DNA from: Malacoraja senta
Lineage: Eukaryota
NCBI GenBank assembly: GCA_038087875.1
Contig: CM075989.1
Coordinates: 3,348,001-3,412,000, forward strand
DNA: 64,000 nucleotides
Direction of reading: 5' to 3'
The notes under the pieces are model-generated. The model made no database searches, was not told where the DNA came from, and saw only the letters and a list, made by a program, of their open reading frames with translations. Position numbers and translations under genes: made by a program. Below are positions 2,852-47,118 of the stretch, one piece after another (the first letter of the stretch is position 1; the number at the start of each line of letters is the position of its first letter).

Positions 2852-4920
2852 ACCATCGATCACCCATTCACGCTAGTTCTACCATATCCTTCTTTCTTAT
2901 CCACTCCCTACGTACTAGGGGCAATTTTCAGAGGCCAATTAACCTACAAACCCGCACTTCATTTGGGTGTGAGTGGAAACCAGAGCACCCGGAGGAAACC
3001 CACGCGGTCACAGGGAGAACGCGAAAACCACACAGACAGCACACGAGGTCAGGATCTGGTGCTGTGAGGCAGCAGCTCCACCCGCTGCACCAGCATACCG
3101 CCACTATGTCCCTGTAGTTGTACGCTGCATGCCAGGGTTCGGAGTAATATTTAATAGCTGTATTTAATATTTAATCAGCTGTCCATTATGTGTGAGAGTT
3201 TCACACTTGACATATTTCATGACTGAGAGCCAAATTGCATTATTCATTAACCGAGCTGAATCATGCCATTTGCTGACTGGATTTATTTTTCAAACCGAGT
3301 TTTAAACCCCAGCTCTGCATCAATGTCTACTTGCTCCCCTTCCTCACCCACTCCCGCCCTGAAAACAGAATCAATGCACTCCTCATTTGCACGCTCAGCT
3401 GCTGCAGTCCCTCCTTTTTAGCCAAAACGACCAAACCTCATCTTCCATCCCACCTAAGTTTCACTTAACAAAAATCCCTCTCAGCTGGGATCTACAGCTG
3501 CCAAATCGTTATCATCACAACTCTTTTCCTCAGTGCGGAAACAGGCCCTTCGGCCCACCGAGTCTGCGCTGACCAGTGATCCCAGCACACTAACACTACC
3601 CTACACACACGAGGGACAGTTTGCAATTCCTACTGAAGCCAATTAACCTACAAACCTGTACATCTTTGGAATGTGAGAGTGAAACCGGGTTACACGGAGA
3701 AAACCCACGCGGTCACGTACAAACTCCGTACAGGATTGAACCCGGGCCTCTGGTGCTGTAAGGCAGCAACTCTACCACTGTGCCACCAAGCCGCCCTCTG
3801 CGTACGTGACAATTAAAAACTCTTGTCTCTCGATTTTAAAGCCTTTTTCAGGATCCCCCCCCTCTCTTTTCCATATTAAAGACCCAGCCAGTTCAATCTG
3901 TCCGAATGGACATAACCTCTCAGTTCTGACATAAACATTTCCAGACATCTTGCTGCGCCGTCTCTCGCCGTTTGACATTTAGTTTTATAATGTGGAGATT
4001 GTGTATAATGACTAAAAACAGCACCATGACCTAGCGATCAAGAGGTATGCAGTCCAATCCCTCAACAGCAGCAGCCCTGGTATGTAAATTTAGTTAATTG
4101 AATAATTAGAATTGAGTATCACTAATGTTGGCCATAAAACGACAATATCACCATTTAAAATAACTTAGAGAAAGTGATTTACCTTCCTTAACTGGTCTGG
4201 GGTTCTAATTGACTCCACATGTAATCAGCAAAGTGATTGATTCAGGAACGGCCTAACAAGACCAGCCCCATGCTTCCACATTTACTGCACTGTGCAGCCC
4301 CTCTTGCACAAGGACCTCAGCTGCTCAAGATGGCGGCTGCCTGCCTGCCTGCCATCCATCTGCTCAGTGGCAGGTAGGGATGAGGAATAATTAAATGCAC
4401 GCCTCGTCAGCCATTCCCACATTCACGCACGTGGCATTGGGCCGAAGGGCCTGATCCTGTGCCGTACTGTTCAATTGATTGATTGATTAGGTTAGTTTAG
4501 TTTGGAGATACAGCGGGGAAACAGGCCTTTCAGCCCACCTGGCCCCACGCCGACCAGCGATCCCCGCACATTAACACTATCCTACACACACACTAGGGAC
4601 CATTTTTACATTAATACCAATTAACCTCCAAACCTGTACGTCTTTGGAGTGTGGGAGGAAACCAGAGATCTCGGAAAAACCCACGTGGTCACGGGGAGAA
4701 CGTACAAACTCCGTACAGACAGCATCTGTAGTCGGGATCGAACCCGGGTCTCTGGCGCTGTAAGGCAGCAACTCTACCGCTGTGCCACCGTAACTGCACT
4801 CGTTGATTTTTTGATACCTTATTGTCACATGTATAGGGTGCCGACATAGTTGCAATGGTCCCTCTTACTCCTCCCACACCCCGCCCCCGCCCCCGCCCCG
4901 CTGAGTCCCTCTGGGTTCTC

Positions 4921-9790: not shown

Positions 9791-11887
9791 TCGGTTGAAA
9801 GGAAATAGTAAAAAATGGAAAGAGCCATGGTTTTCATGGGTAATTGGACACTTGGTTCGGAAAAAGAGAGAGATCTACAATATTTATGGGCAGCATGGAG
9901 TAAATGAGGTGCTTGAGGAGTATAAAGAATGTAAAAAGAATATTAAGAAATAAATTAGAAAAGCTAAAAGAAGATATGAGGTTGCTTTAGCAAGTAAGGT
10001 GAAAGTAAATCCAAAGGGTTTCTACAGCTATATTAATAGCAAAAGGATAACAAGGAATAAAATCGGTCCATTAGAGAGTCAGAGTGGACAGCTATCTGCA
10101 TAGCCAAAAGAGATGGGGGAGATATTGAACAATTTCTTTTCTTCGGTATTCACGAAGGAGAAGGATATGGAATTATGCGAGGTAAGGGAAACGAGCAGAG
10201 TAGCAATGGAAACTGTGAGATTCAAAGAAGAGGAGGTGCGGACACTTTTGAAAAATATGAAAACGGATAAGTCTCCAGGTCCTGACAGGATATTCCCTAG
10301 GACATTGAGGGAAGTTAGTGTAGAAATAGCAGGGGCTATGACAGAAATATTTCAAATGTCATTAGAAACGGGAATAGTGCCGGAGGATTGGCGTACTGCG
10401 CATGTTGTTCCGTTGTTTAAAAAGGGTTCGAAGAGTAAACCTAGCAATTATAGACCTGTTAGTTTGACGTCAGTGGTGGGCAAATTAATGGAAAGGATAC
10501 TTAAAGATAATATATATAAGCATCTGGATAAGCAGGGTCTGATTAGGAACAGTCAACATGGATTTGTGCCTGGAAGGTCATGCTTGACTAATCTTCTTGA
10601 ATTTTTCGAAGAGGTTACTAGGGAAATTGATGAGGGTAAAGCAGTGGATGTTGTCTATATGGACTTCAGTAAGGCCTTTGACAAGGTTCCTCATGGAAGG
10701 TTGGTTAAGAAGATTCAATTGTTGGGTATTAATGGTGGAGTAGCAAGATGGATTCAACAGTGGCTGAATGGGAGATGCCAGAGAGTAATGGTGGATGGCT
10801 GTTTGTCAGGTTGGAGGCCGGTGACTAGTGGGGTGCCTCAGGGGTCTGTGTTGGGTCCACTGTTGTTTGTCATGTACATCAATGATCTGGATGAAGGTGT
10901 GGAAAATTGGATTAGTAAGTATGCAGATGATACTAAGATAGGTGGTGTTGTGGATAATGAAGTAGATTTTCAAAGTCTACAGAGAGATTTAGGCCATTTG
11001 GAAGAGTGGGCTGAAAGATGGCAGATGGAGTTTAATGCTGACAAATGTGAGGTGCTACATCTCGGCAGGACAAATCAAAATAGGACGTACACGGTAAATG
11101 GTAGCGAATTGAGGAATGCAGTTGAACAGAGGGATCTAGGAATAACTGTGCATAGTTCCCTGAAGGTGGAATCTCATGTAGATAGGGTGGTAAAGAAAGC
11201 TTTTGGTGTGCTGGCCTTTATAAATCAGAGCATTGAATATAGAAGTTGGGATGTAATGTTAAAATTGTACAAGGCATTGGTGAGGCCAATTCTGGAGTAT
11301 GGAGTACAATTTTGGTCGCCTAATTATAGGAAGGATGTCAACAAAATAGAGAGAGTACAGAGGAGATTTACTAGAATGTTGCCTGGGTTTCAGCAACTAA
11401 GTTACAGAGAAAGGTTGAACAAGTTAGGTCTTTATTCTTTGGAGCGCAGAAGGTTAAGAGGGGACTTGATAGAGGTCTTTAAAATTATGAGCGGGTTAGA
11501 CAGAGTGGACGTGGATAAGCTTTTCCCATTGAGAGTAGGGAAGATTCAAACAAGGGGACATGACTTGAGAATTAAGGGACAGAAGTTTAGGGGGAACATT
11601 AGAGGGAACTTCTTTACTCAGAGAGTGGTAGCTGTGTGGAATGAGCTTCCAGTGGAAGTGGTGGAGGCAGGTTCGATGTTATCCTTTAAAAATAGATTGG
11701 ATGTGTATATGGACGGGAAAGGAATGGAGGGTTATGGTCTGAGTGCAGGTAGATGGGACTAGGGGGAAGTATTTTATTTTTAATTTAAAAATTTTTTTTT
11801 TTTAAATAAAAAAAAATAAAAATTTAAATGTTCGGCACGGACTTGAAGGGCCGAGATGGCCTGTTTCCGTGCTGTTATGGTTATATG
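9791..11887 (+). mobile_element. Young 5'-truncated CR1-clade LINE (HER1-like) inserted in an HE1 SINE
   Basis: ORF 10113-11762 has KSPGPD, NYRPVSLTS, QHGF, DFSKAFDKV, GVPQGSVLGP, YADD and RRRLRGDLIEVFK. The 3' end resembles the SINE tail. Short TSD gtagt (9786-9790 / 11888-11892). Confidence 0.95.
10113..11762 (+). pseudogene. CR1 ORF2 reverse-transcriptase and C-terminal region, 549 aa open; endonuclease domain missing
   Basis: Complete RT motifs including YADD. In-frame stops upstream (near 9951 and 10101) and 5' truncation show it is a dead-on-arrival copy. Confidence 0.9.
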
Positions 11888-14990: not shown

Positions 14991-15212
14991 CTCTGAGAAG
15001 ACAACTAGCTATTAAAAATCGCCCAACAATTAATTTATTCAGAGTCTGAAGAAGGGTCCCCACCTAAAACGTTGCCTATCCATTCCCTCCACCGATGCTG
15101 CCTGACCTGCTGATTTACTCCTGCACTTTGTGTTTTACTCAAGAGAGGGAAGAAACCTGGTGCTACATTTGATGGTCATCTTGAAGAGAGAATTAGATTT
15201 AGCTAGACAAAA

Positions 15213-15266
15213 GGGGTGGGAGATTGCAACCTTCACGTGGTCCGCCCTGTTTCGACGAATGCAATC
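15213..15266 (+). ncRNA. Minimal HDV/CPEB3-like self-cleaving ribozyme (predicted)
   Basis: P1 GGGGTGG(15213-19)/CCGCCCT(15242-48) with G1-U wobble; P2 GATTGCA(15222-28)/TGCAATC(15260-66); P3 ACC/GGT closing L3 TTCACGT; GT after P1; vestigial P4 TTCGA; J4/2 CGAA with candidate catalytic C at 15256. Confidence 0.85.
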
Positions 15267-15357
15267 AACCCGGCGTGCACAATCAAATAAGATCAAATAG
15301 AACAAGTTGTCCTACAACTTTAGGCTGTCCACGCCATACACAAGAAGAAGAAGAAGG
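15213..15357 (+). mobile_element. Short non-coding retroposon headed by an HDV-like ribozyme, (AAG)n tail
   Basis: TSD tagacaaaa (15204-15212 / 15358-15366); (AAG)5 tail; near-identical second copy at 33494-33637 on minus. Confidence 0.9.
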
Positions 15358-15675
15358 TAGACAAAAGTGCTGGAGAAACTCAGCGGGTGCAGCAGCATCT
15401 ATGGAGCGAAGGAAATAGGCAGTTTCGGGCCGAAACCCTTCTTCAGACTGATGTGGGGGGGGGGGGGGGCGGGGAGAAGAAAGGAGAAAGCAAGAGGAGG
15501 AGCCCGAGGGCTGAGGGAGAGCTGGGAAGGGGAGGAGACAGCAAGGGCTACCAGAAATTGGAGAGGTCAATGTTTATGCCGCTAGCGTGCAGACTGCCCA
15601 AGGTGCATATGAGGTGCTGCTCCTCCAATTTCCAGTGGTGCTCACTCTGGCCATGGAGGAGGCCCAGGACAGAAA
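15358..15675 (-). mobile_element. Penelope-like element 3' end and pLTR, inserted in a CR1 3' end
   Basis: Reverse complement matches 59215-59542. Host CR1 sequence agat(t)tagct is repeated on both sides (15195-15204 / 15675-15683). Confidence 0.85.
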
Positions 15676-33035: not shown

Positions 33036-33493
33036 TTCTTTTGATGTTATGGATTTAAAAGAATAAAATAAGGACACAACAATGGCTTATGAATCAGTAA
33101 TAAGGAGAATAAACCTAGGATATCTATTGGAAGTATAAAAGAGGAGTTTGAAAGAAAATATTGTATACAATTGTATGTTGGAATTTGAAGGTGCTTAGCA
33201 AGATCTTTAAGAAGAAATCAAATTCTTAAAGCTAAATAATAAAGAGGATAGAGAATGAATCCGGAAATTGTATTAGAACTGGCACCAGCCTTCTTTAGCC
33301 CTCGCGTTTCCAATTCTGTAATCATGTTATAATGGGAGAATAATGAAAATAAATGAGTCTATAGCTTGCATCATTTGAATCGAGCCGCCTTCATTCTGAC
33401 TGTTCTGATAATCTAAAATGGACACATTTGGCTCAACCATTCAAGCACTGTCTCCTAGTTCCATTTCCCTTCATAAACACAAAAAGCTGGAGT

Positions 33494-33637
33494 CTTCTTC
33501 TTCTTCTTGCGTATGGCGTGCACAGCCTAAAGTTGTAGGACAACTTGTTCTATTTGATCTTATTTGATTGTGCACGCCGGGTTGATTGCATTCGTCGAAA
33601 CAGGGCCGACCACGTGAAGGTTGCGATCTTCCACCCC
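33494..33637 (-). mobile_element. Second copy of the HDV-ribozyme-headed short retroposon
   Basis: Reverse complement reads GGGGTGGAAGATCGCAACCTTCACGTGGTCGGCCCTGTTTCGACGAATGCAATC...(AAG)5; 11-bp TSD aaagctggagt (33483-33493 / 33638-33648). Confidence 0.9.
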
Positions 33638-34675
33638 AAAGCTGGAGTAACTCAGCGGGACAGGCAGCATCTCTGGAGAGAAGGGATGGGTGATGTTTCC
33701 AGTCGAGACCATTCTTAATGGAGATTAGCTTGGACAGGGATATTTTTCTGGCCAAGATGGGTCAATTGAGCAAAGTACCAAAGGACTGATGATGTCTGTA
33801 GAACATTAAATATCAGCTTGACACAGTGGGACCCTTCTTAGCTCTAAGTCAACAATTTGCGAAGACAGCAGTTAATCGAGGGCGGATTTGGCGCTGGCGA
33901 ATTGATGGATAGATACAGCATGGAAACAGGCCCTTCAGCCCACCGAGTTGATGCCAACTCGTTCACACTAGTTCCAAGTTATCCCACTGTCACATCCACT
34001 CCCTACACGCTAGGACTAATTTACAGAGGTGATGTGGGAAGTGGGAAGAAAGTGGAACACCCAGAGGAAACCCACCCGGTCACATAACATGCAATCTCCA
34101 CACAGAGAGCATAAGGTCAGAATCAAATGGGGTCCCTGGCGCTGTGAGGCAGCAGCTCTACCAGCTGAATAGAGAGATAAAGGAATAGTGCTTAATTGTA
34201 AGAGGTACAGCCTGTTGAATGAGAAGTTCAACTGACTTTAGAGAAGAACTTGAATGATTATGTTTGGCGAATAGTGAAAGGCCTGGATAGAGTGAATGTG
34301 AAGAAGATGTTTCCACTAGCGGGAGAGTCTAGGACCAGAGGCCATAGCCTTAGAATAAAATGATGTACCTTTAGAAAGGAGATGAGGAGGATTTTCCTCA
34401 GTCAGAGGGTAGTAAATCTATAGAATTCATTGCCACCGAAGGCTGTGGAGGCCAAGTCAATGGATATTATGAAGGCAAATATTGACAGATTTTTGATTAG
34501 TGTGGGTGTCAGGGTTTATGGGGAGAAGGCAGGAGAATGGGGTTGAGAGGGAAAGATAGATCAGCCATGATTGAATGGTGGAGTAGACTTGATGGGCCAA
34601 ATGGCCTAATTCTGCTCCTAGAACGTATGAACTAATGATTGTATAGCATCTGGAAGGAGGAGCAAAGGAGATCTT

Positions 34676-43479: not shown

Positions 43480-44330
43480 AATATTGTATTATATTGTATT
43501 GTATATCTTTATTGTCATTTCCTGAGTATTCACATACCCAGAGGAAACAAAAAAACGTTCCTCAACCAGTGTCCATTTCAGTGTGCAGTAAAAAATAAAT
43601 AGAAGTAAAAATACATATATCATGAACAAATTAACACTCTACTCTACTAAACATCAACAGGCGTTCCGATCGGCAGCGGCACGACAGTGGCTCTGCTGCA
43701 GTGTGTCCAGGTTGGTGGTTGGTGCACGATACTTTGGCAGGGGACAAAGTCCGTTTATCAGTCTTATAACCTGCGGGAAGAAGCTGAGGAGCATCCTGCT
43801 GGTTTTGCACCTAATGCTCCTGTACCTCTTCCCAGATGGCAGGATGGAGAATATGTGATGCAATGGGTGGTAGGGGTATTTGATGATGGAGATGGCTCTG
43901 CTGATACATCTCTTCCTGTATATGTCCAGCAGGAAAGGGAGTGGAGCACCAATAATCCTGCTGGCGGTCTTCACAATCCTGTCTAGTTGGTGCCGTTCGT
44001 ACGCCTTGCAGCTCCCGAACCAGGAAGTGATGCCGTAGGTTAATGTGCTCTCGATTGTCCCCCTATAAAAAGTTCGTAGGTGTGTAGTGGGGAGACCTGC
44101 TTTACATAGTCTTCGGAGAGGGTGTAGTCGCTGCTGGGCTCTCTTGACCAGTGCTGTGGTGTTGGTCGTGGACGTCAGGTCATCTGACAGGTGGAGTCCT
44201 AGGAACTTCACGCTGTTGACCCTTTCCACATCAGCTCCATCGATGTGCAGAGGTGTATGGTGTTGTTTTCCCGCCCTCCTGAAGTCAACCACCATCTCCT
44301 TAGTTTTTCCCACGTTGAGAATGAGGTTGT
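43480..44330 (-). mobile_element. Rex1/Babar LINE 3' part
   Basis: KTKEMVVDFRR, VKFLGLHLSDDL, KRAQQRLHPLRRL, FYRGTIESTLTYGITSWFG, LPSGKRYRSI. Confidence 0.9.
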
Positions 44331-45027
44331 GGGATTTGCACCTAGATCTGAAGGGCCTGTTTCCACCCTGTATGAATCTGTGTACTGGTTGGTACTTGGC
44401 AACTGTGATTTGCAGTCCCCACCGCCAGTCGAATCCGAGGAAACTTAATAAGAATGTCAGGAGGATTAAAAAAGAGATTCCATTTGGATTAGTTCAAGCA
44501 GGGGGATGATGGTCAACATGGATCCAGTGGGCCGAAGGTCCTGTTTCCATGCTATATCTCTCTATGATTCGATAACTCTTTCTATGAGTCACTGTGACCA
44601 GTGTAAGACTCTGAAGTAAATCCAAGAAGGAGGATGTGACCCTTTAAAGTAACAGGGTATTCCTTTCACTATAGATAGTGTCACGATTTGGGACAGATCA
44701 AAAATATTACACTGAAATTGTGTACAATCATAAGAGGTATTTAATGCAACATAAGCATTGTGCAAATTAATTATGGTATAATAATACATGTGAATGTTCA
44801 TACAAGAGATGGCGGGCTTGTGCAGCGGTAGAGTTGCTGCCTTACAGCGCCAGAGACCTGGGTTCGATCCTGACTGCACGGAGTTTGTACGTTCTCCCCG
44901 TGACCATGTGGGTTTCCTCCGGGTGCTCCGGTTTCCTCCCACATTCCAAAGACGTGCAGGTTTGTAGGCTTATTGGCTTTGGTAAGAATTGTAAATTGTC
45001 CCAAGTGTTGTCGGATAGTGTTGACGT

Positions 45028-46098: not shown

Positions 46099-47118
46099 AA
46101 TCAGATATTCGACTCGATAACAATCAGCACGGGAGCACCTCAAGGCTGCGTGCTCAGCCCCCTGCTGTACTCACTCTATACTCATGACTGCATAGCCGGT
46201 CATAGTGCAAACTCGATCATCAAGTTCGCTGACGACACCACTATTGTGGGACGTATCACTGATGGGGATGAGTCAGAGTATAGAAGAGAGATTGAGTGAC
46301 TGACCATATGGTGCCAGCACAATAACCTGGCCCTCAACACCAGCAAAACCAAGGAACTGATTGTGGACTTTGGAAGGGGTATGATGGGGACCCACAGTCC
46401 CGTTTATATCAATGGGTCGATGGTGGAAAGGGTCAAGAGCTTCAAATTCCTGGGCGTGCATATCTCTGAAGATCTTTCCTGGTCCGAGAACACTGATGCA
46501 ATTATTAAGAAAGCACATCAGCGCCTCTACTTCCTGAGAAGATTACGGAGAGTCGATATGTCAAGGAGGACTCTCTCTAACTTCTACAGTTGCACAGTAG
46601 AGAGCATGCTGACCGGTTGCATCGTGGCTTGGTTCGGCGACTTGAGCGCACTGGAGCAGAAAAGACTACAAAAAGTAGTAAACACTGCCCAGTCCATCAT
46701 CGGCTCTGACCTCCCTTCCATCGAGTTGATCTATCGCTGTCGCTGCCTCAAAAAGGCTGGCAGCATCATCAAGGACCAACACCATCCTGGCCACACACTC
46801 ATCTCCCCGCTACCTTCGGGTAGAAGGTACAGGAGCCTGAAGACTGCAACGACCAGGTCCAGGAATAGCTACTTCCCCACAGTCATCAGGCTATTAAACT
46901 CGACTCGGACAAAACTCTGAACATTAATAGCCCATTATCTGTTTATTTGTACTTTATCAGTTTATTTATTCATGTGTGTATATATTTATATAATGGTATA
47001 TGGACACACTGATCTGTTCTGTAGTCATGCCTATGTTCTGTTGTGCTGAAGCAAAGCAAGAATGTCCTTGTCCTATCAGGGACACATGACAATAAACTCT
47101 CTTGAAACACTTGAAACA
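46099..47118 (+). mobile_element. Rex1/Babar LINE 3' part inserted in an HE1 SINE
   Basis: STGAPQGCVLSPLLYSLYTHDC, KFADDTT, FKFLGVHISEDLSW, LPSGRRYRSL; premature stop at 46297-46299; (cttgaaaca)n tail. Confidence 0.9.

Follow-up and report, generated by a model that had tools for sequence, protein, structure and literature searches.

A dispersed 145-nt retroposon family headed by a P4-less HDV-like ribozyme fold in the genome of Malacoraja senta

The 145-nt element in the window and its genomic family

The stretch of DNA analysed here (the window) comprises 64 kb of contig CM075989.1 in the Malacoraja senta assembly GCA_038087875.1. It carries remnants of CR1-type LINEs at 10104-11759 (+), 43657-44493 (-), and 46300-46917 (+), with an RVT_1 match at 1.7e-36 and two frames that match Pfam ALKBH8_N, and no host gene was recognised among its 12 longest frames. 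The nearest named homologues of the CR1-type RT of the window are those of the rays Hypanus sabinus (74%) and Mobula birostris (54%).

On the plus strand, at 15213-15356/7, lies a 145-nt ribozyme-headed element flanked by a target-site duplication, TAGACAAAA, at 15204-15212 and again at 15358-15366; G15357 may be taken as the last base of the element or as a base of the target, and either assignment fits. The sequence itself, an alignment to RF02682, the covariance model R1, and covariation (see below) all place a P4-less HDV-like fold with a CPEB3-type core in the first 54 nt (15213-15266, +). P1 pairs GGGGTGG (15213-15219) with CCGCCCT (15242-15248) over 7 bp, including a G1-U wobble. J1/2 occupies 15220-15221, P2 pairs GATTGCA (15222-15228) with TGCAATC (15260-15266) over another 7 bp, and the 3 bp of P3 (ACC, 15229-15231, with GGT, 15239-15241) enclose L3, TTCACGT (15232-15238). 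Directly after P1 comes GT (15249-15250), followed by the 5-nt linker TTCGA (15251-15255) in place of P4 and by CGAA as J4/2 (15256-15259), which holds the candidate catalytic C15256, a role assigned by analogy only. The remainder of the element, on the same strand, consists of a non-coding 3' body (15267-15341), characterised from folds and the RNA variant table, and an (AAG)5 tail (15342-15356). In the body the fold predicts a long-range stem between 15272-15280 and 15327-15335 and a hairpin formed by 15304-15310 and 15314-15320; position 15329, within the long-range stem, is C in the window copy versus G in about 98% of the RNA reads. The helices P1, P2, and P3, L3, the GU, the linker, CGAA, the duplication, and the (AAG)5 were each found in the sequence at the place that the sequence-only reading had given them.

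The window copy is inserted inside another, very abundant repeat, with an RNA depth of more than 4000 over 15365-15400 and a loose-end consensus at 15353. RNA depth over this hosting repeat (...GTGCTGGAGAAACTCAGCGGGTG..., 15358-15457) exceeds 4,000 per orientation, and opposite-strand joints are numerous there. A second copy of the same element is found on the minus strand at 33494-33637 (96.5% identity, head at 33584-33637), flanked by ACTCCAGCTTT at 33638-33648 and 33483-33493; in its head, P1 and P2 have each lost one pair to a substitution. The window contains an 18-mer of the element core twice, where 0.01 occurrences would be expected, and this, together with the matches of model R1 described below, takes the core match beyond chance.

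In the assembly of 1.94 Gb, the 54-nt head was matched 5,708 times when up to 3 mismatches were allowed, and a 3' 54-mer of the element 5,079 times, with 0 matches in the reversed-pattern controls for both counts; from the comparison of the two numbers, most copies are full length. A genome search with the 145-mer gave 998 first-look candidates, of which 40 were scored. All 40 were 97-100% identical, and 36 of them begin at query base 1. Among 31 copies inspected with their flanks, the 5' end is G1 in 28 and G2 in 3, and the preceding flanks are unrelated. A script detected a duplication of at least 6 bp adjoining G1 in 24 of these 31 copies, the remaining seven having interrupted tails that the script handles poorly. 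Tails in the 31 copies run from about 2 to 9 AAG units, some of them interrupted, and the target-site duplications of the family measure roughly 9-12 bp. The 145-nt element is a young, large non-autonomous retroposon family, and the multi-copy retroposon with duplications and a common 5' end at G1 that had been proposed from the window is borne out by the genome counts and by the 28 of 31 copies that start at G1. The 31-mers of the element are also present in sequencing runs bearing 8 organism labels from 11 studies, with no RNA run listed among these indexed runs.

The family is not uniform. A subfamily without 18 nt of the body accounts for 14 of the 24 matches of one pattern search, 3 near-variants counted in, and its copies sit in independent flanks; it has therefore still transposed, and that part of the body is dispensable. 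Another subfamily (L111, L112) has a different, shorter middle (...GATAGATGTAGTGTTTTGTT AGGCTG...), and one instance of this type lies directly 3' of the end of a CR1-like element. L062 (about 1090-1510) and, downstream of the head, L084 contain a small inserted element bounded by inverted ends (CCCTGTCCCAC...GTGGGACAGGG). Its insertion point is the TTTA of a 145-nt element copy, and related upstream ends at the same TTTA site in several other copies suggest that this site is a preferred target of the inverted-end element.

The fold of the head and its sister families

No Rfam family matched anywhere in the window at gathering thresholds, and the window head matched neither the curated CPEB3 model (RF00622) nor the HDV models at E up to 10. 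In a permissive scan RF02682 was the only model to match the head, weakly (14.4 bits, cut-off 44, E 2.3), although its alignment covers 15213-15266 exactly and from one end to the other. A plain MFE fold of the 145-mer was no better than shuffles (z 0.15), a value that is uninformative for the head since the MFE program cannot model pseudoknots. The strands of the head follow the HDV-like order P1-P2-P3-L3-P3'-P1'-(P1.1)-J4/2-P2' and form a nested double pseudoknot from which the P4 helix is absent, the 5-nt UUCGA standing in its stead. The single-stranded core of the head equals the Rfam CPEB3 consensus, and the motifs UUCACGU, GU, and CGAA, which the sequence-only reading ascribed to the mammalian ribozyme, agree with this consensus.

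Heads from six families, 22 in number and none of them from the window family, were used to build a covariance model, R1. The structure given to it consisted of P1, P3, and the base of P4 only; P2 was withheld. On both strands of the 64-kb window (128 kb), R1 returned exactly two matches, and these were the two element copies, both aligned over model positions 1-67: 15213-15266 with 33.4 bits and 33584-33637 with 36.8 bits, at E-values of 5.7e-7 and 7.8e-8 that are rough because the calibration was short.

Pairs were then counted in 27 heads from seven families against the full double pseudoknot, with slid partners as the control. Paired cells amounted to 89.1% as compared with 38-46% for slid partners, the covariation score was 0.503 as compared with at most 0.092, and both sides changed in 15 of the 22 pairs. 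P2, which is absent from the structure of R1 and is free of bias, was 94% paired, with compensation in 6 of its 7 pairs. P1 was 85.5% and P3 92% paired, in an alignment fitted to P1, P3, and P4 that biases these helices towards the structure; many of the 27 rows are decayed copies, which lowers the pairing percentages. G15213-U15248 closes P1 as a G-U wobble, and of the 23 lettered cells at this column pair (1-57), 15 hold G-U, the misses being decayed or 5'-shortened copies. The consensus of L3 is U-Y-C-N-C-G-U, a G and a U follow P1 in all heads (27/27), L3 forms the P1.1 C-G pair with the G that follows P1 in 26 of 26 cases, and J4/2 has a C in 25 of 27 heads followed by two A (27/27 and 26/27). 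The conservation of the pairings in P1, P2, and P3 that the earlier reading had proposed to check is present across seven families. The HDV-like/CPEB3-like fold of the head is supported by covariation, and from this fold we infer cleavage.

The element is accompanied in the same genome by at least two sister short families with HDV-like heads. One of them (L091-L098, ~200 nt, ~2,250 copies) is also P4-less and passes the RF00622 cut-off with 35-44 bits. Its head reads GGGGYC AA GGAAAGA GCG UUCACGU CGC GGCCC(C)U GU UUCCA CCAA UCUUUCC. A T stands before GGGG in 7 of the 8 copies, the models set that flank base at ribozyme position 1, and a +1 G thus seems to be missing from the DNA copies with GGCCCCU. 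The two P4-less families have a near-identical linker (UUCGA CGAA in the 145-nt element, UUCCA CCAA in the other) and differ on both sides of the helix at 3 pairs of P1, 5 of the 7 pairs of P2, and 2 of the 3 pairs of P3. A common linker combined with compensated helices argues that the fold stayed under selection after the loss of P4, and the ~2,250 copies of the second family suggest that P4-less heads are compatible with amplification.

The third short family (L085-L089, ~200 nt), reached via RF02682, has kept the P4 hairpin and is nearest to that model, at 26-37 bits (cut-off 44). Its head is GGGGCUC..CACC UCCCCGU GGUG..CGAA CGACAAC and its tail is ..CTCAAACGC(AAG)n, ending ...AACGC(AAG)n; the 3' end of the 145-nt element reads ...GTGCACGCCATACGC(AAG)n. 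At least three more families with CPEB3-type heads, mostly decayed, were also seen (L081, L106; L099, L104, L105, L108, L110; L100, L102, L107, L109). In one of these, both P4 (CAGAUUCUACAAGAAUCUG) and P2 (AGCAGGA/UCCUGCU) are very near the Rfam CPEB3 consensus.

A CPEB3-headed LINE and the proposed mobilisation of the element

When RF00622 was run over the genome, 39 of the 60 matches listed exceeded the cut-off of 35 bits, the best with 64.2 bits. The matches are the first bases of repeated elements and belong to several families with different helix sequences, with scores of 61.3 bits for L079, 59.7 for L081, 51.4 for L104, 48.2 for L100, and 43.7 for L091. Among them is a LINE of ~3.1 kb that opens with a full CPEB3-type ribozyme of 73 nt, at 61-64 bits on RF00622 (copies L077-L084, L101, and L103, e.g. 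L079:1501-1573, minus strand; L078 + L090). Read from L078 and L090, this LINE encodes Exo_endo_phos (7.4e-9) and RVT_1 (9.5e-33) domains in a 940-aa frame that starts at nt 85, and it has an (AAG)4 tail at nt 3127-3138 and an 11-bp duplication. After one in-frame stop the frame is open through the (AAG)n tail (...HEKKKK), with no stop before the tail in the copy read. A length of ~3.1 kb, a single endonuclease+RT frame, and a trinucleotide tail make up what we take to be the RTE layout. Only 10 heads of this LINE are present in the genome at up to 3 mismatches. Homologues of its RT (L090:3-1400) with 53-60% identity were found in a psyllid, a springtail, a tubeworm, and an Antarctic fish, which is unusually close for such distant hosts and makes horizontal spread possible; their names carry no clade, being 'hypothetical' or, for the tubeworm protein, 'from transposon BS'. 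A metagenome scan for relatives of the N-terminal half of the LINE gave 2 loci, both 5'-truncated and without heads.

The head of the 145-nt element is of the same ribozyme kind as that of the LINE. A model made from the LINE and sister heads recovers the element head; the single-stranded core is common to both, and their helices differ in a compensated manner. A LINE with an (AAG)n tail, as postulated from the element, exists in the genome; it is autonomous, with an endonuclease+RT frame, and its head belongs to the same ribozyme class. As to the further expectation that such a LINE would share the 3' end of the element, no LINE with its last 26 nt was found at up to 2 mismatches. Patterns that demanded non-element letters beside the motif found no LINE with the same head or tail either, and matched only internally deleted, 5'-truncated, or interrupted copies of the element and its subfamilies. 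In blastn of the element body against the LINE copy and other loci, the tail repeat alone matched, and the 3' ends of the LINE and the element have only ACG-N-(AAG)n in common (one LINE 3' end compared). No wider 3' homology having come to light in that comparison, the two are linked through the tail repeat, a brief ACG-N-(AAG)n end, their common ribozyme class, and the length of their duplications. Judged by the tail, the ribozyme class, and the duplication length, the CPEB3-headed endonuclease+RT LINE is the likely mobiliser of the element.

We favour, with a probability of about 0.7, the reading that the element is a LINE-dependent retroposon, presumably without a promoter of its own, whose P4-less head self-cleaves from host transcripts. 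A copy would be transcribed as part of a longer host transcript, and its first 54 nt would fold as a P4-less HDV-like double pseudoknot. The RNA would be cleaved just 5' of G1, with C15256 as the putative catalytic base by analogy, and this cleavage would give the element its precise 5' end. The structured 3' body and the (AAG)n tail would be used in trans for target-primed reverse transcription, probably by the endonuclease+RT LINE of the same genome, which has a full-size CPEB3-type head and the same tail repeat, and insertion would yield the duplications of ~9-12 bp. The element would probably belong to a type composed of a ribozyme head plus a 3' tail, as the R2 SIDEs do, in contrast to a Pol III SINE.

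Two oligo-dT RNA-seq runs, whose reads come from many copies, cover the element at ~600-900x per orientation. The window locus is silent (depth ~0 at 15149-15208), and the element reads stem from other copies within longer transcripts and are equally numerous in the two orientations. Read-through across G1 is abundant, with 794 reads of run X23 that extend past 15213 into heterogeneous flanks, and no pile-up of 5' ends at G1 is listed in the oligo-dT reads. Efficient cleavage is not visible in steady-state poly(A)+ RNA, which argues weakly against it in a test that is itself weak, as the library appears to be unstranded, reads from antisense and intronic copies are mixed in, and fragments with a 5'-OH may not be stable. 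According to a 2026 preprint, ligation captures HDV-like ends poorly. In about 1,300x of RNA coverage, head variants in at least 10% of the reads are confined to J1/2 (15220), to the linker (15254), to the N of CNAA, where G becomes U or A (15257), and to 15244, where U.G becomes U-A and stays paired. The CpG of L3 decays in single copies, at a frequency below 10% of the reads. This pattern is suggestive of master copies that keep the fold.

The lack of a 5'-end pile-up and the many read-through reads are also what one would see if the head were the descendant of a LINE ribozyme that no longer cleaves without P4 and if the 5' end came from an internal promoter starting at G1. A sharp 5' end by itself does not speak for either process, as a transcription start and a cleavage site look alike, and a head that is both promoter and ribozyme has a precedent in Pr77 of L1Tc (PMC3383444). 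After the loss of P4, however, the helices of the two P4-less families still changed by compensation, and the high-frequency variants within the family avoid the core. Both observations fit selection on the fold and not on a DNA promoter motif, and we consider a promoter-made 5' end unlikely.

The size, the copy number, and the LINE-type tail of the element are SINE-like, and an ordinary Pol III SINE could combine an unrecognised internal promoter with an incidental pseudoknot. The best A-box and B-box matches, scored against a consensus that we assume for the two boxes, have 3 mismatches each. Such likeness is at chance, however, 299 of 2000 shuffles being as good, and the B-box-like TTCGA is replaced by TTCCA in the sister family, whereas the ribozyme pairings are kept. 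ARAGORN found no tRNA and Rfam no 5S, 7SL, or snRNA family, so that a Pol III-type head (derived from tRNA, 7SL, or 5S) was not detected in the element by Rfam, ARAGORN, or the box scan. The original remark that tRNA A and B boxes are missing agrees with these results, and a Pol III origin appears very improbable. A chance arrangement in a repeat, which the low Rfam scores and the MFE z of 0.15 might suggest, is excluded for practical purposes by the recovery of the head with exact borders by the independent model R1, by the covariation of the pairings across seven families, and by the identity of the single-stranded core with the Rfam CPEB3 consensus.

Relation to known ribozyme-headed elements and to the CPEB3 ribozyme

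HDV-like ribozymes lie at the 5' ends of R2, R4/Dong, RTE, and L1Tc LINEs, where cleavage at the junction frees the LINE RNA from the co-transcript, as cited in PMC3774820. The element treated here is of the non-coding derivative type. The candidate LINE has a 5' ribozyme as well, and its single endonuclease+RT frame, its length of ~3.1 kb, and its trinucleotide tail would correspond to the RTE layout. In Drosophila, R2 SIDEs, together with hybrid SIDEs of the R2/R1 kind, are non-coding and combine a 5' HDV-like ribozyme with a 3' end that is used by a LINE (PMC3414825). The proposed likeness of the element to the SIDEs lies in the ribozyme head, a 3' end for the LINE machinery, the independence from Pol III, and the dependence on co-transcription. 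As far as that source describes them, however, SIDEs occupy only rDNA target sites in few copies, have large R2-type ribozymes, and show clear 3' UTR homology to R2 or R1, whereas the element is scattered in ~5,700 copies, its P4-less head measures 54 nt, and extended 3' homology to the candidate LINE is not seen. In trypanosomatids, L1Tc and NARTc carry a common HDV-like ribozyme (Pr77, L1TcRz) in their first ~77 nt, according to PMC3185411, PMC3383444, and PMC4035085. As in M. senta, an autonomous LINE and a non-autonomous element there have HDV-like heads and dispersed copies. The trypanosomatid pair differs, in these accounts, in its protist lineage, in the ribozyme sequence, and in Pr77 being a promoter as well, and NARTc is a truncated L1Tc, whereas the body of the element is unrelated to the LINE.

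With the mammalian CPEB3 ribozyme (RF00622) the head has an identical L3 UUCACGU, the GU after P1, CGAA in J4/2, and the helix order in common. Unlike CPEB3, the window head fails the RF00622 score, lacks P4, and has different sequences in all helices; the CPEB3 ribozyme is single copy, intronic, equipped with P4, and described as mammal-only in PMC8233481. According to this 2021 study, the CPEB3 ribozyme family is not known outside mammals and is for that reason without outgroups. No report of the 145-nt family, of CPEB3-type ribozymes in cartilaginous fish, or of the CPEB3 family in any host other than mammals was found in the literature searched. Metagenomes and gut phages have yielded P4-less HDV-like ribozymes (drz-Mtgn, theta ribozymes) that lie beside tRNAs, and P4 is dispensable in these minimal variants (PMC10879173). 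The head of the element is like them in forming the double pseudoknot without a P4 domain, but it stands at the head of a eukaryotic retroposon, whereas the minimal ribozymes of that source are tRNA-adjacent and of metagenome or phage origin.

The known ribozyme-processed non-autonomous retroposons come from Drosophila rDNA, in few copies, and from trypanosomes; the family described here is dispersed in a vertebrate and has ~5,700 copies. Thousands of copies, together with sister families that all have HDV-like heads and an (AAG)n tail, would mean that ribozyme processing can replace a Pol III promoter genome-wide. The head is a natural 54-nt P4-less HDV-like ribozyme fold in a eukaryote, with cleavage predicted by analogy. 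The genome also holds multi-copy elements above the curated CPEB3 threshold of Rfam, and since the family is stated to lack outgroups (PMC8233481), the origin of the CPEB3 ribozyme becomes testable by comparison. We suggest only tentatively, and think it somewhat doubtful, that the heads are kin by descent of the mammalian CPEB3 ribozyme and that no natural HDV-like ribozymes of eukaryotes are smaller than the 54-nt P4-less heads, which would be active in vivo and, with a tail of ~90 nt, enough to launch thousands of copies. If this were true, the fish heads would be the first members of the CPEB3 ribozyme outside mammals, and they would hint at a LINE/SIDE insertion as the source of the ribozyme in the CPEB3 intron.
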